Part shown: positions 5,915-32,553 of the stretch, piece by piece
Position numbering within the stretch: position 1 is the first letter of the stretch
Layout of the letters: the number at the start of each line of letters is the position of its first letter
NCBI GenBank assembly: GCA_030618465.1
Contig: JAUXDD010000003.1
Coordinates: 1-35,186 of the forward strand
Reading direction: 5' to 3'
From: Desulfobacteraceae bacterium
GTDB lineage: Bacteria > Desulfobacterota > Desulfobacteria > Desulfobacterales > SURF-7
DNA: 35,186 nucleotides
Position numbers and translations under genes: made by a program
Notes under the pieces: model-generated
What the model saw: only the letters and a program-made list of their open reading frames with translations
What the model was told of the DNA's origin: nothing
The model's database searches: none

Positions 5915-6613
5915 ATGATGCGGTTACAAAAATTTCTTTCAACGGCCGGTATATGTTCCAGGAGAAAAGCAGAAGAATTCATCAGCGCCGGCCGCATTAG
6001 TGTTAACGGTTCAATTATAACCCGGCCCGGCACCAAGGTCCATCCCCATAATGATGTTGTTAAATTTGACGGCAAGCCGGTAGAATTCAGTCAGAAGCTT
6101 ATTTATATTGCCCTTAACAAACCGGAAGGATATGTTACCAGTTGCAGCCGTCAAAAGGACCCGATTGTCCTGGACCTCCTTGACATTCCCCTGCGGATTT
6201 ACCCGGTTGGTCGTCTTGACAAAGATTCGTGTGGACTCCTCCTGATAACCAATGACGGGAATCTGCACCAGAGGCTTTCCCATCCTTCATTTGATCATGA
6301 AAAAGAATATGATGTAACCGTTGCCCTGCCGATTTCAAACAGCGATCTTGATCGCATGGCAAGGGGGATGCACATCCTTGGGACAAAAACACGGTCGGCT
6401 GTTGTCAGGCGGATTTCAGGAAAACGATTCCGCATTACTTTAAAAGAAGGAAGGAATCGTCAGATCCGCCGGATGGTCAGAAAAATAAAAAACAACGTAG
6501 TTATTCTGCAACGGGTAAGGATTGCCACTATAAAGCTTGGCAACCTTCCAAAGGGAAAATGGAGACACCTGTCGGAAAAAGAAAATAAGGGTCTCTTAAA
6601 AAGTTCTATCTGA
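5915..6613 (+). CDS. rluB: rRNA pseudouridine synthase, RsuA/RluB family (S4 plus catalytic domain)
   Basis: MRLQKFLSTAGICSRRKAEEFI (S4 domain), LNKPEG, catalytic VGRLD, EKEY, EGRNRQIRRM. Start uncertain (5843, 5885, 5915 or 5918); exact paralogue uncertain. Confidence 0.88.
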   Translation: MMRLQKFLSTAGICSRRKAEEFISAGRISVNGSIITRPGTKVHPHNDVVKFDGKPVEFSQKLIYIALNKPEGYVTSCSRQKDPIVLDLLDIPLRIYPVGRLDKDSCGLLLITNDGNLHQRLSHPSFDHEKEYDVTVALPISNSDLDRMARGMHILGTKTRSAVVRRISGKRFRITLKEGRNRQIRRMVRKIKNNVVILQRVRIATIKLGNLPKGKWRHLSEKENKGLLKSSI

Positions 6614-6674
6614 TTATCTCCCGCTGTTTCCTCTCTATAAAACCGGTTCAACCATATTGCTATCGTTTTTATTA

Positions 6675-8273
6675 CTACATTCTGTTCGTAAGCTTCCGGA
6701 AATAACTCTCATTTTCCACTAACACAACCGCATCGTCAAACTTGATCAGGTTATTATTATACAACTTTGAAAGGGCTGATTCTAAAGATGTATAATCTTC
6801 CGACCCCATCTGCATCTGGCTGCGAATCTGGTGGGTTTTATTGTCTCTGATCATCTGTTTAATCTTGCTGCTGTTTATCAGCTTTTCAATCGCCAGGATC
6901 ATCCCTTTCCCATCTTTTCTCGGCACCAGACGCTGCGAAATACATAATTGCAAAGTATTTGCCAGCATCGACCTGATCAATGCCTGCTGGTGGGTCGGAA
7001 ACATGTTAACCACTTTTTCGATAATGGATGTGGTATTGTTGGCATGGACGGTGCTGATCACCAGATGCCCGGTTTCGGCAGCGTGAAGAGCAATTTCAAA
7101 GGACTCAATATCTCTCATTTCCCCAATCACGATAACATCAGGCGCCTGTCGCAAAACATGCCTTAATCCCTGAGCAAACGAATTCGTATCCCGGCTGACT
7201 TCCCTTTGATTCACATTGCTCATCTTATGCTCATGCAGGTATTCAATGGGATCCTCAAGTGTTACGATATTACATCTTCTATGCGTATTAATAATATTTA
7301 CGAGCGCGCTCAACGTTGTTGTCTTGCCGTGGCCGGACGCACCGGTTATCAAGATCAAGCCCTGAATTCTTAATACAAAGTCTTTCATCCATTCCGGAAT
7401 ATTCAGCTCTTTTAATGAAGGAATCTTATCAACAACCGGCCGGATAGCGATGGAAATCGAATTTCTCTGCCTGTAAACATTTACCCGGAATCTTCCAATG
7501 CCTGGAAAAGGTACGGCAAAATCATGGTCACTTCTTTTACTGAATATCTCCCAGTCCCTGTCAGGCATCAGTTCTTTTGCGTATTTTTCGCAATCTTCAG
7601 GCGTAAGCGGGTCCATTGCCAGCCTGTTTACGTCATTGTATAATTTTATGGAGGGCGCAACACCTGCGGTGAGAAGCATATCACTTGCATCGGACTTCAT
7701 CAGGTACTTCAACAATATCTGGAGATCAGCGGCTTTGTTTTCTTTACGCGCCCTTCCCAGCTCCCTTACATTCTTTGCAATATCTTTACCCTTCAGCGTT
7801 CCTCTGGGATTTGTCTGAAGGATCTCCTGGGCAGCCTTCATCATAAACGCGGGCACGATTACAGGATGGATCTTTTTCCCAAGCTCAAACTCCAGTTCTG
7901 TGATGATCACCACATCAACCGGATTCAGCATGGCAATGGTCACTGAATTTTTATCCGCTTCAACCGGCAGGACATTGAGGGCCAGGATCTTTTCAAGGGG
8001 CAGGCACCTGACAACTTTCATATCAATATCTCTATGGATAAGGTTAGAGGAAGGAAATCCAAAAGATCTGCTTAAAACACTTAACAGATCATCAATGGAG
8101 ATATACCCCATCTGAAGAAGAATAGAGCCGATCTGCCCTTCACCCATCTGCCGCTGCCACTTCAGTGCCTGCTGAAGCTGTTTTTTATTAATCAGTCCCT
8201 GCTCAACCAGCATGTCACCGAATCGTTTTTTCTTTGCGCTTTCTTTTTTCGAGGCCTGTGGCGTTTTTACCAT
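6675..8273 (-). CDS. pilT: PilT/PilU-family type IV pilus ATPase with N-terminal MshEN/GSPII_N domain
   Basis: C-terminal ~350 aa: ASDMLL, RFRVNVYRQR, Walker A GASGHGKTTT, Asp box TLEDPIE, Walker B PDVIVIGEMRD, His box AETGHLVISTVH, SQRL; no PilB/GspE tetracysteine Zn motif. N-terminus RFGDMLVEQGLINKKQLQQALKWQ fits the MshEN motif. Confidence 0.88.
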   Translation of the reverse strand: MVKTPQASKKESAKKKRFGDMLVEQGLINKKQLQQALKWQRQMGEGQIGSILLQMGYISIDDLLSVLSRSFGFPSSNLIHRDIDMKVVRCLPLEKILALNVLPVEADKNSVTIAMLNPVDVVIITELEFELGKKIHPVIVPAFMMKAAQEILQTNPRGTLKGKDIAKNVRELGRARKENKAADLQILLKYLMKSDASDMLLTAGVAPSIKLYNDVNRLAMDPLTPEDCEKYAKELMPDRDWEIFSKRSDHDFAVPFPGIGRFRVNVYRQRNSISIAIRPVVDKIPSLKELNIPEWMKDFVLRIQGLILITGASGHGKTTTLSALVNIINTHRRCNIVTLEDPIEYLHEHKMSNVNQREVSRDTNSFAQGLRHVLRQAPDVIVIGEMRDIESFEIALHAAETGHLVISTVHANNTTSIIEKVVNMFPTHQQALIRSMLANTLQLCISQRLVPRKDGKGMILAIEKLINSSKIKQMIRDNKTHQIRSQMQMGSEDYTSLESALSKLYNNNLIKFDDAVVLVENESYFRKLTNRM

Positions 8274-8611
8274 TTAGCGTCTCCTTCCCAGCCCCCCACC
8301 AGATGCTGGTGGAGATGAAAAATCATTTGGCCACCGCCGTTTTCCACATTAAAAAGTAGCTTGTAACCGGACTGATCAATACCCTCGCGTTTTGCCATCT
8401 CTTTGCCAAGCATTGCCATTTCCCCGACAATGATTTTGTCTTCCTCTGTAAGATCATTTATACTCCGGATATGTTTTTTAGGAACAATCAGAAGATGGAC
8501 CGGCGACTGGGGATTTATATCCCTGAACACAACTAACATATCATCTTCATATAAAAAATCCGTGGGAATTTCTTTGTTTGCAATTTTGCAGAACAGACAA
8601 TCTTTTTCCAT
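8267..8611 (-). CDS. hinT: Histidine triad (HIT) nucleotide-binding protein, HinT-like
   Basis: DCLFCKI, FRDINPQSPVHLLIVPKKHI, GGQMIFHLHQHLVGG; ATG 8611 follows GGAGG; the stop overlaps the pilT start by 7 nt. Confidence 0.93.
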   Translation of the reverse strand: MEKDCLFCKIANKEIPTDFLYEDDMLVVFRDINPQSPVHLLIVPKKHIRSINDLTEEDKIIVGEMAMLGKEMAKREGIDQSGYKLLFNVENGGGQMIFHLHQHLVGGWEGDAKW

Positions 8612-8646
8612 ACGCTTATTACCTCCGGACAATTAGTCTGTGACCC

Positions 8647-24992: not shown

Positions 24993-27122
24993 TCAATCAA
25001 CCAGCGTACGCTTACCGCTTAAATCTTTTAATGCCCCGTTAAGTATTAAAGTAATGGGCTTGTCTTCTTTCGCAATTTTATTTAAATAAATTGGCCCGGG
25101 CCGCCTGTAATTATCTTCCCCGGGAACGGCAGCAAGCCATTTATCCCTTAATTCCTTTACTATTAAAAACGCCGTCGAATTGACATCCACCAGACTTTTT
25201 TCAAGCACCAGGGCAAGCCGCCCTTTTCTCTCTTCCAGGTGCATGAGTGGAGCAATAGGAATACCAAGCGGCTCCCAGTGGGCGGTATCCATTTCCAGGT
25301 TTTTTATAGCCGCCATCTGGCCGGTTGCGCCATTAGCGATCAGTGAAAAAGTTGTCAGTCCCAGATTGTATGTATAATTGCAGTCAAATTCAGTGGGATC
25401 GTTACCCCTGCCGTCATAACCGAAAAAATGCCCCTGGGTCTTAAATTTTGGAACTGATTTTTGGAATATTTTTTCAACAGATTCGGGAATATTGTCGCCT
25501 TTTCTTAAAAAACCGCTTTTCACCAGAGCCATTTTAAGTGTTTTCAAGGAAATAATAGATTTTTTAAACAACAGGTAGGCACCATCGGCATAATTTTGAA
25601 AAAGAGCCGGACCCAATGTATCATGATCCATATTTTCCGATGTAAGTGCCTTCTCAAAATATGCTCTTTGAATTCCGATTCTGTAAATTCCCTGCTCCTT
25701 TAATATATTGAGATAGTCATCCACCAGCCCCATGATGATCTTATCTGTTTCCACCTGGGAAAACTGAAAATTACCGTGGCTGTCCCGCTCCGTTAACAGG
25801 CCTTCCTGAAAAAATTCCGGGATATCATTAAACAGGTCATCATCCCGCATACTCCATATTGAAACACCGGAATCGTCCTCCGGGCGTCTGGCCAGTTTTC
25901 GCAAATAATCAAGTTTATCTTCCAGAAGCGAAAACGCGGAATGAAAATCCCGGTCATGGGTTGTGTTGTACCCTGAAATGATCGTACTCAGTTTAATAAT
26001 AAACGTCTGTATTTCATTAATAAATTCCAGGACACCCTCAGGGATGACAATCACGCCGAAATTCTTGCCCACGGCAGCGCGTTTTAAAATACCGTCACAA
26101 ATCACCCGGGACAAATGCCGCAGGGTCATGCCATAGGCAGTATAATCAATGCCCCCCTTTTTTTCTGCTTCTTCAATTCTCTTAAAATCAACATAATCCG
26201 CAAGATCTTCGCCGATAAGGGTTATATTCGCATGGGTCTGAAGGGCCACCTCAAGTGCAAGATGGCTGGCAACCCGCCCCATGACCTTGCACACATGCCA
26301 GTATTTAACATCGGAACTGCTGTCCGTGCAAAGGTTGCTGATTTCTCTGGCAAACGCACGGGCTGCCGTATGAAAACCAAATGAAACAGCACACAACACA
26401 TTTCCGTTTTTATCACTTATCTGGATATCGCCATCAATTGTCTTGGGGACGCCGATCACCTGGATCTGGTCATCAACCATCTCCTGGGCCAGAAATACCG
26501 CATTGGTATTTGAGTCATCACCGCCAATCACCACCAGTGCATCCAGTTCCAGTTCCAGGCAGGTCTCTTTCGCCATGGACAGCTTTTTTTCTGTGTCAAT
26601 TTTTGTCCGGCCGGTTTTGATCATTGTAAACCCGCCAAGATTTCTGTATGCATCAACCATATCCTTTGTGAGTTCAATCACTTCATTTTCAATGATGCCA
26701 TCAGGCCCGTTGAGAAACCCCAATATTTTTGTTTCCGGGTTGGCTTTTTTTGCGGCATCAAAAATCCCTGCAATTACATTATGGCCGCCAGGTGCAGGCC
26801 CCCCTGAAAAAACAATTCCAATATTGCGCTTTTTAGTAAAATTATGAACACAGTCATCAGCAGCACGATCAACACCTGAAATACGCTGCACCTTGTTTTT
26901 AATCATTTCCGGGAGTTGTTTTACAGCTTCCGGATGACTATCAAACTCATATTTGTCAACATTTGACAACACAGTACAGGATTTTGAGAATTCATTGCAT
27001 ACGACGGGTTTGTACATTCGTCTGTTTTTTAATTCCTGGTTGATATGACTGGTGATCATTTTTACCTGTGGATGCCGTATCCACTCATCAATACACATAT
27101 GCCTTTTTTCTAACACGTTCAT
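24993..27122 (-). CDS. pfp: Pyrophosphate-dependent phosphofructokinase (long clade) with insertions
   Basis: SGGPAPGGHNV, GRTKI, GGDDSNTNA and PKTIDGD (Asp/Lys pair diagnostic of PPi use), SFGFHTA, MGRVASH, IPEG, HFFGYDGR; 709 aa. Confidence 0.9.
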   Translation of the reverse strand: MNVLEKRHMCIDEWIRHPQVKMITSHINQELKNRRMYKPVVCNEFSKSCTVLSNVDKYEFDSHPEAVKQLPEMIKNKVQRISGVDRAADDCVHNFTKKRNIGIVFSGGPAPGGHNVIAGIFDAAKKANPETKILGFLNGPDGIIENEVIELTKDMVDAYRNLGGFTMIKTGRTKIDTEKKLSMAKETCLELELDALVVIGGDDSNTNAVFLAQEMVDDQIQVIGVPKTIDGDIQISDKNGNVLCAVSFGFHTAARAFAREISNLCTDSSSDVKYWHVCKVMGRVASHLALEVALQTHANITLIGEDLADYVDFKRIEEAEKKGGIDYTAYGMTLRHLSRVICDGILKRAAVGKNFGVIVIPEGVLEFINEIQTFIIKLSTIISGYNTTHDRDFHSAFSLLEDKLDYLRKLARRPEDDSGVSIWSMRDDDLFNDIPEFFQEGLLTERDSHGNFQFSQVETDKIIMGLVDDYLNILKEQGIYRIGIQRAYFEKALTSENMDHDTLGPALFQNYADGAYLLFKKSIISLKTLKMALVKSGFLRKGDNIPESVEKIFQKSVPKFKTQGHFFGYDGRGNDPTEFDCNYTYNLGLTTFSLIANGATGQMAAIKNLEMDTAHWEPLGIPIAPLMHLEERKGRLALVLEKSLVDVNSTAFLIVKELRDKWLAAVPGEDNYRRPGPIYLNKIAKEDKPITLILNGALKDLSGKRTLVD

Positions 27123-28228: not shown

Positions 28229-30199
28229 TCATGCCTCATCAATTGCTTTCCGAACGTTATACGCAAGTTCCTGTATCGCCAGCGGCTTCATCAGAAAGTC
28301 CTTTATTCCAATTGAATTGGCCTTATCCACATTCATTATTTCACTGAATCCTGAACAAAGGAGAATCGGTATGTCCGTTCTGATCTGCATGATTTCTTTT
28401 GCCAGCATGTCACCTGTCATTATGGGCATTGTCATATCAGTTATCACCAGGTCAAACGCATCGGGCTGTATCTTAAAAACTTCCAGTGCTTCATTGGGGC
28501 CGGTGCTGGCGGCAACGCTGTATCCCAACCGCTCAAGCATCTCCTTGCCAATATCAGCGAGTACCCGCTCATCATCAACAAACAGTATCCTTTCTTTGCC
28601 TGTGGGAAGATGCGCGACTGTTTGACCTTGAACATTTTCCATATTTTCAACAATGGGAAATAATACCTTGAATATGGTCCCCACCTTTTTATTACTCTCC
28701 ACACAGATACTGCCCCCATAACTTTTGACAATCCCATGGACAACCGACAGCCCCATACCTGTGCCCACATGTTTTTCCTTGGTAGTAAAATAGGGCTCAA
28801 AAATTCGTTTTTGTATTTCCGCATCCATGCCATACCCGGTATCTGATATGGACAATTCCAGATAACGGCCGGGCTCAAGATCAGGGTAATCATCTGAATT
28901 ATCAGCATCCAGCTCCCTGGGCTGAAGACCCACCATCAGTACGCCTCCTTTTTCCGCCATGGCGTGTTTGGCGTTTGTACAAAGATTGATCAACACCTGG
29001 TGAATCTGAGTTGAATCTGCCAGGACAGGACATACTTCAGACGTTATACTGGTTCGTATTTCAATCGTACTGGGTAAAGACGCCCTTAAAAGCTTAAGCG
29101 CCTCCTGTATAATGGGTTTGACTTGAATAGCGCGGCGGTCAACTTTGCTTTGCCGACTGAAATCAAGGATCTGCATGACCAGATCCTTGGCACGATAACT
29201 GGCTTTCAGGATCTGATCAAGGCATTTGCCCACCGGATTATCATCTTCAATATCAAACTGTGCTAATTCCACATTCCCCATGATGGCGGCCAGTATATTG
29301 TTAAAATCATGCGCGATGCCCCCGGCGAGTGTACCAATGGCATCCATCTTCTGGTTCTGGTTAAGCCGGACTTCAAGTGCCTTCCGAATCGTAATGTCTC
29401 TTCCAATTCCGTATGTTCCCGTAAACTTTTTATCATTTTCGGTATCTGTCACTTCAAACGTATACAGACCCCGCCCTCCTGAATCGATTGCCATATGCAT
29501 GATCTCAAATATCTTACACTCGTTGTCTTCTCCGGAATGGCAGAGTTCCAGTTCAAATCCGTTTGACATTTGATTTATTTTTCTTCTTTTATTTGACAGG
29601 CTGTTTATCCCATCAATACTTTCTTTCTTAATAATGGAATTGAACGGTTTGCCGATAAGTTCCTTTCCGTCATACCCAAGATGCCGTCCAAATGCACTAT
29701 TTGTAAAAACAAATCTGTTCTCAGAATCAAGGATATAAATCAGGTCAGGCGAACTTTGAATAAGATACTGGTAGTCCCTTTTCGATCTATCCAGTTTTTT
29801 TGCAATATTTTTATTTTCGTTTTTTAATTTCTTTTTTTCAATTGCATTACTGACGGTTTTAATCAGTTCTTCGTGCTCAAACGGTTTTTTGATAAAATCA
29901 TAAGCACCTTTTTTCAGTGCCCTTACAGCTGATTCAACCGACGCATTCCCCGTCATAATAATTACCAGCGCTCCAGGAATCCGGCCCAGCACATGTTCCA
30001 TCAACTGGAATCCATCCATACCCGGCATGCTGATATCCATTAAAAACAGATCATACCCGGGACCCGGCAAATTCTGAAGCGCATTCACCGGGTTGGTATC
30101 AAAATCAACGTCAAACTCATAACGCTCAAGTAAAAATTTGATACTTTCGCACATTCTCTGTTCATCATCAACTATTAGAATTTTGGGCATCGCTTTCAT
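28229..30199 (-). CDS. Hybrid sensor histidine kinase REC-PAS-HisKA-HATPase-REC
   Basis: N-terminal REC (IVDDE, LMDISMP, KKP), PAS/PAC (SPDLIY...GRDIT), H box AHDFNNIL, N box INLCTNA, DTGYGM, FEPYFTTK, GTGMGL, C-terminal REC (VDDE, TDMTMP, MKP); no TM segment. Confidence 0.94.
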   Translation of the reverse strand: MKAMPKILIVDDEQRMCESIKFLLERYEFDVDFDTNPVNALQNLPGPGYDLFLMDISMPGMDGFQLMEHVLGRIPGALVIIMTGNASVESAVRALKKGAYDFIKKPFEHEELIKTVSNAIEKKKLKNENKNIAKKLDRSKRDYQYLIQSSPDLIYILDSENRFVFTNSAFGRHLGYDGKELIGKPFNSIIKKESIDGINSLSNKRRKINQMSNGFELELCHSGEDNECKIFEIMHMAIDSGGRGLYTFEVTDTENDKKFTGTYGIGRDITIRKALEVRLNQNQKMDAIGTLAGGIAHDFNNILAAIMGNVELAQFDIEDDNPVGKCLDQILKASYRAKDLVMQILDFSRQSKVDRRAIQVKPIIQEALKLLRASLPSTIEIRTSITSEVCPVLADSTQIHQVLINLCTNAKHAMAEKGGVLMVGLQPRELDADNSDDYPDLEPGRYLELSISDTGYGMDAEIQKRIFEPYFTTKEKHVGTGMGLSVVHGIVKSYGGSICVESNKKVGTIFKVLFPIVENMENVQGQTVAHLPTGKERILFVDDERVLADIGKEMLERLGYSVAASTGPNEALEVFKIQPDAFDLVITDMTMPIMTGDMLAKEIMQIRTDIPILLCSGFSEIMNVDKANSIGIKDFLMKPLAIQELAYNVRKAIDEA

Positions 30200-30405
30200 A
30201 AGATTTTCGGTCGAAAGCCCCTCGGGATTACGACTCGCTCCTTTCTAATAAAATTAAAAATTGTACACGCCTGGTATCATTCACCGTTTTGGCAGGATGA
30301 ACGGCCAGCCGGCTTATCAACAGCCATTAAATCATACGGTTTCTGCTTAAAAAAATATCATATTTGAGCTTCTCCCTGCACGGGCAGTAACCGTTTTATA
30401 TTTTT

Positions 30406-32553
30406 TTATAACGGTAATGCAATCTTAAATATCGCCCCATTTTCATCATCACTGGCATATTTTATGGTACCTTTCAGTTCCTTGATGATATTATAAACGA
30501 TTGAAAGGCCCAGACCGGAATTTTTAGACTTTTTTGAACTGTGGTAGGGTTCAAAAAGATGTTTCTCTATTTTAACCGGAATCCCCGGGCCGTCATCCCT
30601 GATAATTATTTCCATGTATTGAGAAATCCCATTGCTGTTCTCACTGATGATCTTGCTTGATTCATGGGAAATTTTTGTTTCCACAAAAATATTTCCCCCC
30701 CCGGGCATTGCTTCTGCGGAGTTTTTAAGAAGATTAATCAACACTTGCTTAATACTGTTTTTCTCTGTGATTATGTTGGGCAGTGAATTGTCCAGTTTGA
30801 GATGAATATCAATATGGGAAGGTTTAAGTATCGACTCTTTTATGATTTTTATAATATTCGAAATCAGACGATTTATATTGATGGCTTCTTTCTTTTTGAT
30901 TTGTGGATCCGAAAATGTTGAAAGTTGCCGTATGATTCCCGAAACCCGTTCAATTTCCTCATTCACAACAACAAGATCATTCTGGACAGGATCCTCTTCT
31001 GACAGTTTCATCCCGAGAATTTTCAGGTAATTCTTTATGATGGTCAGAGGATTGTTAACCTCATGAACAACTTGCCGGGCAACTAAAGAAGAAGCTTCCA
31101 TTCTCTCCGATCGAATCTGGTTGATATGTTCCTGCTTTAAATTCTCGATATGAAATCCCATAGCCGCATGATTCACAAATATATTCAGAAGATTTTGCTG
31201 GCCTTTCAACTGAAGCACCTGTGCTTCATCTATACCCATAAGAATAGCCCCCACTTTTGTCTCATGGGCATACATGGGGAGGCAAAAAATACCTTCTGTT
31301 TCTAATAGTCGAATTAATTGCTCATCTGCAATATTTTTCTTGATATTTGAAAAAATTCCAAATGAATCAATGATTTTTTTATCTAAAAAACACCGGGAAA
31401 TCAGACTCTTACTGTTTTCCAGAGGAATTGCCAGATTGGCTATCATCTCATCACTATGATCGCCCCTGGGTGAATATCCGGCAATCAGATCATTTTCCGG
31501 ATCATAAAAAAAGAAAAAACTTTTTCTGATATCAAATAATATCTGCAGTCCCTGCCCAACAATTTTCAGTATAGTATCCTTGTTTTTCGCCTTTAAAAGG
31601 TTTTGAAGGGTCCCATAGAGCAGGGAATAATTTTTTACTTCATATAGAAGCTGTTCACTGTATTTATCGTATTCCTTATCCGAATCTTTGCCTTCAAGAT
31701 TTGAAGGGGATTCAATCTGAATGCCTAAAGACTGGGCCACGTCCGCAGCTTCATCCATTGCTTCCCGGAGCATCTCTTCAGATTGACTATTGCTGAACCC
31801 GAACAGTTTTTCAGCAATGTTATATTTTTCAGGCATATCTGCATCATATTCCAGACACAGGGCATTGGCAGCATATACAATTTTTACAAGCGGAAATGCA
31901 TCCGAGATATTGTCCCCTGCCTCATGATGATAAAAAACCGCATCTGCCATAAACGATTTGAGTTTCCACTGGTGAACCAGCCATGCACCCACTTCACAAT
32001 GATTCACCCCCAGTTTTTCCTCTTCAAGGTAAATCAGGTTTGAATTTTCACCCAGCTCTTTTTCAATTTCAGCATATTTTTTTTCATAATTAACCCACAA
32101 AACCAGTTTTCCCAGATCGTGCAGCAACCCGGCAAGAAAGGCTTCATCCGGCGAATCGTAGGATGTCCGCACAGCAATTTTTTTTGCGACAAGGGCGCAC
32201 ATAATGGAATGCCACCAGAACTGACTGAGTTTAGCGGATGTTTTGTTCGATGACGGACTGAATGCTTTCTGGACAGAAGCACTGATGGCGATCGTCATAA
32301 TCGCATCAAGCCCCAGGTATACGGTTGCTTTTTCTATACTGTATATTTTGGATCGCAGCCCCATATAGGCTGAATTGACAAGCTGAAGCACTTTGACACT
32401 GAGGGATGGGTCCTGTGAAATAATTTTAGAAACTTTTTTAAGGTCAGGATCATCGCTATTGCAGGTATCAATAAGCTTTAGCAGGACCTGCGGAAGGCTG
32501 GGCAGTTTTTTAAAATTTTTAATTTTATTTATTATTTTCTTAGATTTTTTCAT
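30406..32553 (-). CDS. HDOD-domain sensor histidine kinase (HDOD, GAF-like, HisKA, HATPase)
   Basis: HDOD: LPSLP, DPSLSVKVLQLVNSA, FWWHS, AFLAGLLHDLGKL, LGVNHCEVGA, HH. Kinase: HEVNNPL, NLLKNSAEAM, DDGPGI, SGLGL. Cytoplasmic. Confidence 0.9.
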   Translation of the reverse strand: MKKSKKIINKIKNFKKLPSLPQVLLKLIDTCNSDDPDLKKVSKIISQDPSLSVKVLQLVNSAYMGLRSKIYSIEKATVYLGLDAIMTIAISASVQKAFSPSSNKTSAKLSQFWWHSIMCALVAKKIAVRTSYDSPDEAFLAGLLHDLGKLVLWVNYEKKYAEIEKELGENSNLIYLEEEKLGVNHCEVGAWLVHQWKLKSFMADAVFYHHEAGDNISDAFPLVKIVYAANALCLEYDADMPEKYNIAEKLFGFSNSQSEEMLREAMDEAADVAQSLGIQIESPSNLEGKDSDKEYDKYSEQLLYEVKNYSLLYGTLQNLLKAKNKDTILKIVGQGLQILFDIRKSFFFFYDPENDLIAGYSPRGDHSDEMIANLAIPLENSKSLISRCFLDKKIIDSFGIFSNIKKNIADEQLIRLLETEGIFCLPMYAHETKVGAILMGIDEAQVLQLKGQQNLLNIFVNHAAMGFHIENLKQEHINQIRSERMEASSLVARQVVHEVNNPLTIIKNYLKILGMKLSEEDPVQNDLVVVNEEIERVSGIIRQLSTFSDPQIKKKEAININRLISNIIKIIKESILKPSHIDIHLKLDNSLPNIITEKNSIKQVLINLLKNSAEAMPGGGNIFVETKISHESSKIISENSNGISQYMEIIIRDDGPGIPVKIEKHLFEPYHSSKKSKNSGLGLSIVYNIIKELKGTIKYASDDENGAIFKIALPL

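Follow-up and report, generated by a model that had tools for sequence, protein, structure and literature searches.

A PilT-type ATPase clade carrying the MshEN domain of pilus extension motors, with predicted docking on PilM

The window analyzed here, a stretch of 35,186 nucleotides from a Desulfobacteraceae bacterium, encodes a protein in which an MshEN domain precedes a PilT/PilU-type ATPase. This fusion is real and conserved, and it appears to be undescribed in print. It is built from two known parts, but its architecture contradicts explicit published statements. Our main reading, to which we give a probability of roughly 0.45, is that this accessory protein is a PilT-type motor whose N1D brings it to the PilM socket in a PilB-like manner, and that c-di-GMP gates this step. 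The gene, its parts and the adjoining gene are:

6675..8273, minus strand: MshEN-PilT fusion gene, 532 aa (ORF translation, Pfam, NCBIfam)
8154..8225, minus strand: MshEN motif 1, R17-Q40, consensus save L to F at position 18
8064..8135, minus strand: MshEN motif 2, Q47-S70, with G49, L63 and L67 retained, the first Arg replaced by Gln and the final Gln by Ser
7818..8057, minus strand: MshEN_C/T2SSE_N1 alpha/beta subdomain, residues 73-152 (Pfam PF05157 at 77-149; model compared with 5HTL)
7872..7919, minus strand: helix 119-134 (D120, E128, F129, G132), predicted PilM-docking surface
7728..7817, minus strand: variable linker, residues 153-182
6678..7727, minus strand: PilT/PilU-family ATPase, N2D and CTD, residues 183-532, without Zn insert
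7320..7343, minus strand: Walker A, G311-T318 (GASGHGKT), with the clade-specific His315
7242..7256, minus strand: Asp box, E340-E344, intact
7119..7136, minus strand: Walker B, final residue E385, intact
7044..7073, minus strand: His box with H403 and H410, intact
6843..6866, minus strand: KIKQMIRD (470-477), at the place of PilT's AIRNLIRE helix; clade consensus RIKNLIRE
8267..8632, minus strand: HIT-family gene, upstream of the fusion

Translation of 6675-8273 on the minus strand gives an open reading frame of 532 aa without an internal stop. The MshEN and PilT/PilU fusion that the earlier note had proposed for this gene is borne out by two NCBIfam models, both above their cut-offs. The ATG is overlapped by 7 nt by the stop of the HIT gene and has GGAG immediately upstream. 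The two genes are likely co-transcribed at this locus; their linkage is not conserved in other loci. A promoter and terminator scan returned nothing usable (10 versus 5.6 +/- 2.1 and 4 versus 3.6 +/- 1.9 in shuffles). As the earlier note had stated, no other pil genes were recognized among the 74 ORFs of the window (12 of them run through Pfam). Elsewhere in the window, 24993-27122 (minus strand) encodes a 709-aa phosphofructokinase-family protein in which Pfam recognizes one PFK stretch; it is about double the length common in bacteria and presumably resembles the long PPi-dependent type. An HDOD-histidine kinase followed by a receiver-PAS-kinase-receiver hybrid, an ordinary signaling pair, lies at 28229-32553 (minus strand).

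The ATPase of the fusion is of the PilT/PilU type. In the HMM scan that the earlier note had suggested, the protein passes the models for PilT/PilU and for the c-di-GMP motif and fails those for PilB and GspE: the NCBIfam model TIGR01420 (PilT/PilU) matches residues 184-517 at 385 bits against a cut-off of 319, and the PilB and GspE models give 183 and 139 bits against cut-offs of 676 and 630. Pfam reports T2SSE together with MshEN at residues 77-149, which agrees with the alpha/beta subdomain claimed to follow the motifs. When the AlphaFold model of the fusion protein (mean pLDDT 85) was used in a structure search, PilT/PilU entries filled the top 13 rows (Z 32-36), with PilB/GspE entries at Z of 28 or less; the closest solved structures by sequence are PilT and PilU chains as well. 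The fusion protein contains no CxxC, and two CxxC after Walker B were found in 0 of the 166 clade members. HMM, fold and tree (see below) all agree with the PilT/PilU-like motor without tetracysteine Zn insert that had been described from the sequence. Canonical PilT has no N1D/T2SSE_N and about 350-380 aa; this protein has 532 aa with MshEN. It also has neither the Zn tetracysteine insert nor the PilB/GspE-type ATPase of PilB, MshE and GspE.

The residues K317, E340, E344, E385, H403, H410 and the conserved arginines are kept, and we take their roles to be those in PilT. The Walker A GASGHGKT, which had been called atypical, is indeed present at 311-318, but it keeps the GxxxxGK[T/S] consensus, and its His is a signature of the clade (159/166) and not damage. 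KIKQMIRD is found at 470-477 in the expected place, with I475 and R476 conserved across the clade; AIRNLIRE is presumably the name of the PilT motif at this position. Membership of the PilT family is no proof of retraction, since the four PilT paralogues of Geobacter are reported to differ in function (PMC5065972).

At the N-terminus there is a complete MshEN/N1D. Its motif 1 occupies residues 17-40 (nt 8225-8154), where the first reading of the sequence had placed it, and fits the relaxed 24-residue pattern of Wang 2016; any hit to this pattern arises in 11 of 20,000 shuffles of the protein. The second motif (47-70), rightly described as degenerate, misses the pattern at its first residue Q47 only. 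The NCBIfam c-di-GMP motif model NF053729 matches residues 17-69 at 56 bits (cut-off 38), the top score among the seven matches in this genome, and its cut-off is passed by all 19 clade members scanned. In the AlphaFold model, helices 18-24, 30-43, 48-54 and 60-71 are followed by an alpha/beta part, that is, the four-helix bundle and subdomain of MshEN, and residues 15-153 align to c-di-GMP-bound MshE (5HTL) with Z 14.9 and rmsd 4.0 over 138 residues. A single-sequence fold of the N-domain was poor (mean pLDDT 49.6) and was not used.

According to Wang 2016, c-di-GMP binding depends on a pair each of glycines, leucine triads and glutamines, and most of these conserved positions are changed in the non-binder XpsE. 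Among 36 members less than 60% identical, drawn from 166 aligned, the corresponding residues are conserved as follows, at a median top-residue frequency in the domain of 47%: G19 in 36, G49 in 35, L33 in 34, L37 in 35, Q40 in 31, L63 in 32 and L67 in 36. In the same 36 members, motif 1 starts with R or K in 28, the first residue of motif 2 is mixed, and the last position of motif 2 is Q in 17, K in 7 and S in 3. Over the whole clade motif 2 starts mostly with Q or H, and it matches the relaxed pattern in 19 of 166 members, or in 141 when its first position is disregarded. The residue corresponding to D108 of MshE (N117 here) is N in 131 and D in 19 of the 166 members. The motif region is under purifying selection in the relatives: nine pairs were compared, and the seven without saturation have a dN/dS of 0.03-0.36; the query stands outside these pairs.

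The copy in this window deviates at three contact positions, F18, Q47 (for Arg) and S70 (for Gln), and keeps G49, I48, L63 and L67. S70 is also found in a homologue of 98% identity, and Gln stands there in one of 81%. Six residues separate the two motifs here; in MshE the spacer has five, as it does in 97 of 99 aligned homologues. Comparable changes in other proteins are reported to have a 4-80-fold effect (about 10-fold for the Gln) and not to abolish binding: MshE Q61A retains c-di-GMP binding, 11.8-fold weaker, PilF GSPII-B tolerates a non-Arg residue (L196) at the start of motif 2 with a KD of 6 nM and retains binding, at 460 nM, when mutated to Q218E. Judged from the conserved pocket, it is quite probable that the N-domains of this clade bind c-di-GMP. 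For the copy at hand we regard binding as likely rather than certain because of its weaker motif 2 (Q47, S70), and its affinity is probably lower than that of MshE.

A survey of the architecture, which had also been suggested, found the fusion to be conserved. There are at least 120 full-length homologues with 53-98% identity and 93-100% coverage, and all 120 listed carry MshEN and T2SSE. Those named among the matches listed belong to Desulfobacterales, Nitrospirae and other Deltaproteobacteria, and they stand in the databases under automatic PilT names. Full-length fusions make up 17 of the 80 loci retained from named genomes; they come from Desulfobacterales, Thermodesulfovibrionales, Nitrospirales, Geobacteraceae and Deferrimicrobiaceae. 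The clade is found in Desulfobacterota and Nitrospirota. The gene is patchy: it occurs in 12 of 40 relatives (9/17 in the family and 3/23 elsewhere in the order, one of them cut by a contig end) and in 10 of 200 genomes sampled from the phylum. Near-identical DNA was detected in cold-seep and sediment metagenome runs, with at least half the words present in 7 of the 24 listed; none of the runs listed is an RNA run, and the search has no bearing on expression.

A phylogeny of the ATPase against PilB, PilT and PilU, as the earlier note had proposed, places the fusion on the PilT side. The tree was calculated from a 60-row subsample of 143 rows (22 fusions, 29 unfused PilT-family proteins and 9 PilB/GspE). 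All 22 fusions form one clade (100/100), and PilB/GspE are set apart at 100/100. A mixture-model tree of 48 rows gives the same grouping, and after addition of 50%-identity representatives the clade comprises 39 fused rows out of 41. A single clade (99/99) is likewise obtained for the N-domains of 36 members, and this concordance indicates that both parts travelled together. Nesting of the fusion within particular PilBs was rejected (p 1e-6 and 3e-5), as was grouping with PilU (AU p 4e-8 versus two rows, a small sample, that we take to be of PilU type from their Walker A motif). Going by the trees, the fusions form a deep, old clade of their own and are not orthologues of canonical PilT or PilU. 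The data are compatible with this clade branching off first within PilT, next to PilB (AU p 0.50, or 0.09 with the mixture model), in a test with the fusion and all PilB on one side that addresses only the attachment of the PilB branch. Hence the MshEN domain may have been either gained by this clade or ancestrally retained.

Other MshEN-PilT fusions fall elsewhere in the ATPase tree, with at least 8 forced changes and 53 proteins flagged by the N-profile. Because weak N-profile matches include multi-MshEN PilB and partial matches, this count of independent fusions leans toward the upper side. The nearest Atlas clusters are MshEN-PilT fusions from Actinomycetota. Four of the out-of-clade fusions (P0146, P0148, P0150 and P0151) pass the motif model with 46-57 bits and score 404-490 with the PilT model; they are possibly independent c-di-GMP-sensing main PilT motors. 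A further group of about 620 aa (L096:6770-8629, minus strand; P0212, P0214, P0246 and P0269) combines a cNMP-binding domain, an MshEN_C-like subdomain and PilT by Pfam domains and forms one branch in the tree; proteins of similar length are found in genomes G035 and G038. This arrangement suggests that the docking handle is combined here with a sensor of cAMP/cGMP. Six proteins of 720-1020 aa (P0122, P0123, P0126, P0129, P0132 and P0136) have two PilT-type stretches per chain and are either tandem PilT-PilT/PilU fusions or read-through artifacts.

The fusion gene is an orphan and an accessory paralogue, present in addition to ordinary pilT genes: all 22 carrier genomes have another PilT-family gene, which is the higher-scoring one in 21. 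Conservation of pil synteny was not found in 28 loci, where no neighbor family is common to more than 7. Membership of a conserved pil operon was likewise rejected, since linkage to pilT is restricted to one lineage (family f46), in which locus L141 has the fusion, a receiver protein and an ordinary pilT on one strand and locus L142 has the fusion and the receiver. At L141:5052-8457 (minus strand) these three genes form one apparent operon, and the adjoining genes are presumably phage-like.

A PilM match was obtained in 20 of the 22 carrier genomes, one of them weak; the two misses are genomes of 90% and 66% completeness. The genome of the window itself has pilMNOP, five PilB/GspE ATPases, 7 GGDEF matches and a second PilT-family gene, which is partial and cut by a contig end. 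It also has a PilB-type gene with its own c-di-GMP motif adjoining a PilC-type gene. A GAF-MshEN-ATPase of about 770 aa (G000:C268:13499-15805) and an ATPase of about 607 aa (G000:C264:6548-8371) recur in the genomes G000 to G040 and may be the type IVa extension motors. The same genome encodes a 447-aa non-ATPase with several MshEN-like repeats, one of which scores 57.5 bits, above the motif cut-off (G000:C107:13902-15245).

In the model, the surface of the N-domain resembles a stator-docking N1D. Complex prediction with residues 13-156 and the PilM that the same genome encodes at G000:C167:3178-4233 gave a score of 0.70, versus 0.00 for the best of three controls, with this PilM as the only PilM-like partner compared. 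At least 92% of the contacts agree between runs, and the pLDDT of the partner is at least 80. Of 157 solved pairs, 116 attain this score mark, compared with 2 of 215 mismatched ones; these counts hold only roughly here, as our own alignments were used. In the predicted interface, helix 119-134 faces PilM; nine of the PilM residues involved are the same in all 18 PilM rows. On the side of the fusion, F129 is present in 160 and G132 in 164 of the 166 clade members, and Geobacter PilB shares the F-x-x-G of this helix. The alpha/beta subdomain is thus predicted to dock on the PilM of its own genome, a prediction that is new in this analysis. Contacts between PilB and PilM are inferred in the literature from GspE-GspL structures, and for this reason the score may derive from likeness to the solved GspE-GspL complexes (2BH1, 4PHT). 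Stator docking of this kind, on PilM/GspL-type proteins, is known only for extension and secretion ATPases, whereas here it is predicted for a PilT-type protein.

The mechanism that we favor would work as follows. An intact PilT/PilU-family ATPase of an old clade carries a complete PilB/MshE-type N-terminal domain, of which the four-helix half would bind c-di-GMP and the alpha/beta half would dock on the pilus stator PilM, with helix 119-134 at the site inferred for the N1D of PilB. In this way, c-di-GMP would gate when a retraction-type motor engages the type IVa pilus machine. The ligand would act on recruitment or conformation and not on the rate of ATP hydrolysis, in line with reports on PilB that bears MshEN: the ATPase of C. 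thermophilum PilB is dampened by its N-domain, and c-di-GMP barely changes hydrolysis in vitro, which favors control of engagement over control of turnover. The weakest step is the assumption, by analogy with MshE, that the form with c-di-GMP bound is the engaged one. If so, the motor would compete with the extension ATPases for the socket at high c-di-GMP and favor retraction, alongside ordinary PilT. The earlier note had offered c-di-GMP gating and docking on the assembly platform as two alternatives; both gain support, and they seem to correspond to the two halves of a single domain instead of competing. Counting against the mechanism are the altered catalytic residues of 10 of 166 clade members, the 5 of 19 scanned members that miss the cut-off of the PilT model, the lack of conserved pil synteny and the basal position beside PilB that the AU tests allow.

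The protein could instead be a c-di-GMP-controlled brake or decoy that fills the PilM socket or co-assembles with another motor and shuts out the extension ATPases, with little mechanical work from its own hydrolysis. The predicted PilM docking would fit this equally well, and the invariably accessory status of the fusion points in the same direction. So do its PilT-model scores, which are below those of ordinary PilT in the carrier genomes (339-413 versus 455-509). Ten of 166 members are altered at the Walker A Lys, the Walker B Glu or the Asp box with the c-di-GMP motif kept, which leaves room for a decoy role; the motif model gives P0135, P0144 and P0160 scores of 56-64 bits. However, the query and 156 of 166 members retain the Lys of Walker A and the Glu of both Walker B and the Asp box, R263 and R357 are invariant (166/166), and the dN/dS of the ATPase is 0.03-0.19 in all nine relative pairs. 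With this evidence we consider a brake or decoy unlikely for the protein studied here. As a separate observation, clade members with a degenerate Walker A or B and a kept MshEN motif (P0135, P0144, P0160, P0194, P0124, P0205 and P0264) are candidate pseudo-ATPase c-di-GMP receptors.

Another possibility is that the N-domain is only a docking handle on which PilM or some other protein lands, and that c-di-GMP sensing has been lost in this copy. There is a precedent in PilF GSPII-A, an MshEN look-alike reported to be non-binding even after its consensus was restored, and the N-domain matches it by sequence with 56.9 bits, versus 55 for MshE. The deviations F18, Q47 and S70 are in line with such a loss, as are the out-of-clade fusions P0165, P0181 and P0259, whose motifs are eroded (no motif match at E 1e-8), and the cNMP-PilT proteins, of which P0212 keeps the alpha/beta half of MshEN alone. 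On the other hand, the two glycines of the pocket, its leucine triads and Q40 are conserved throughout the clade, and the structural match to 5HTL (Z 14.9) is better than that to 9G1W (Z 13.0). Moreover, a capping box of the GSPII-A kind was found at the N-terminus of 0 of 166 members, and the basic patch that precedes R17 resembles that of MshE (K/R at position 15 in 149/166). We therefore doubt that this copy is a mere handle.

It is improbable that the protein promotes extension, works in both directions or drives another filament system, such as those of the T2SS-like or MSHA-like clusters in the same genome. Its PilB-type N1D with the F-x-x-G helix shared with Geobacter PilB would suit such a role, as would the basal position beside PilB that the AU tests allow. 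Only 2 of 41 genomes of the order have a PilB above the TIGR02538 cut-off, and a review reports that V. cholerae PilT is needed for MSHA extension. Against this stand the lack of a Zn insert and the PilT-like fold and HMM match. In addition, 28 of 40 relatives have no match to the fusion while 40 of 41 genomes hold PilB/GspE-type ATPases, which indicates that it is not the general extension motor. Finally, an assembly chimera absent from related genomes, as the earlier note had considered, or a recent pseudogene can be dismissed: apart from the fact that the genome is a 295-contig assembly nothing favors it, and it is contradicted by the 120 of 120 listed homologues with both domains, the concordant domain clades and the domain junction, which, in a comparison of four runs, is bridged by contigs of the runs X2 (6566-7869) and X3 (7639-8004) with no joints listed.

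Compared with known systems, the accessory PilT-type motor shares MshEN_N and MshEN_C, the tandem 24-residue motifs and a T2SSE-family ATPase with MshE (Vibrio cholerae), PilB (M. xanthus, C. thermophilum), PilB2 (C. perfringens) and PilF (T. thermophilus). These extension ATPases build pili and are of the PilB/GspE type with a Zn motif, whereas the fusion is of the PilT type without Zn, and its motif 2 begins mostly with Q or H. With PilT (G. metallireducens PilT4 6OJX, T. thermophilus PilT2 5FL3, A. aeolicus 2EWV, P. aeruginosa 3JVV) it shares 35-42% identity, a fold that superposes at Z 32-36 with an rmsd of about 2 A, Walker A and B and the Asp and His boxes, but it differs in the 180 additional N-terminal residues, the P-loop His, the altered AIRNLIRE helix, its separate clade and its status as an orphan accessory gene. 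Like PilU (P. aeruginosa 9N32, fold Z 34.5) it is a PilT-family paralogue additional to PilT; unlike PilU it carries MshEN, groups apart from it in the AU test and adjoins pilT in one lineage only. An input of c-di-GMP to the retraction motors PilT/PilU is described for the PilZ protein XC_2249 of Xanthomonas campestris (Roelofs 2015), which is a separate adaptor with indirect control, while the fusion has a sensor-type domain in the same chain.

The earlier note had taken MshEN to be confined to extension and secretion motors. Published statements agree with it: PilT is said in two papers to lack this domain, a 2024 review tells extension and retraction ATPases apart by it, and the examples of MshEN-T2SSE in the architecture table of PMC5013675 are PilB, MshE and XpsE only, PilT being absent as an example. 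The present clade is an architectural counter-example. A description of an MshEN-PilT fusion was not found in the mostly open literature on these motors (including PMC5013675, PMC12002112, PMC6957770, PMC11656802, PMC9765702, PMC11731258, PMC5065972, PMC4624772, PMC10333796, PMC6668835, PMC6858323 and PMC7096442), the supplements of which could list such proteins. Floyd 2020 named a direct action of c-di-GMP on PilT-mediated retraction as an open question.

More tentatively than for the mechanism itself, the fusions could be seen as an undescribed old clade of retraction-type motors with the docking and c-di-GMP-sensing domain of an extension motor. In these, c-di-GMP might decide whether a PilT- or a PilB-type hexamer occupies the PilM socket, and PilT may have gained the handle repeatedly with swappable sensors, c-di-GMP here and cNMP elsewhere. 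The clade is a natural architectural counter-example to the rule that MshEN belongs to extension motors only, and it offers a small soluble domain for c-di-GMP binding studies. As a natural chimera of N1D on PilT, it also bears on the question whether N1D sets the recruitment or the direction of a motor. If both binding and docking are true, c-di-GMP would control a retraction-type motor directly.
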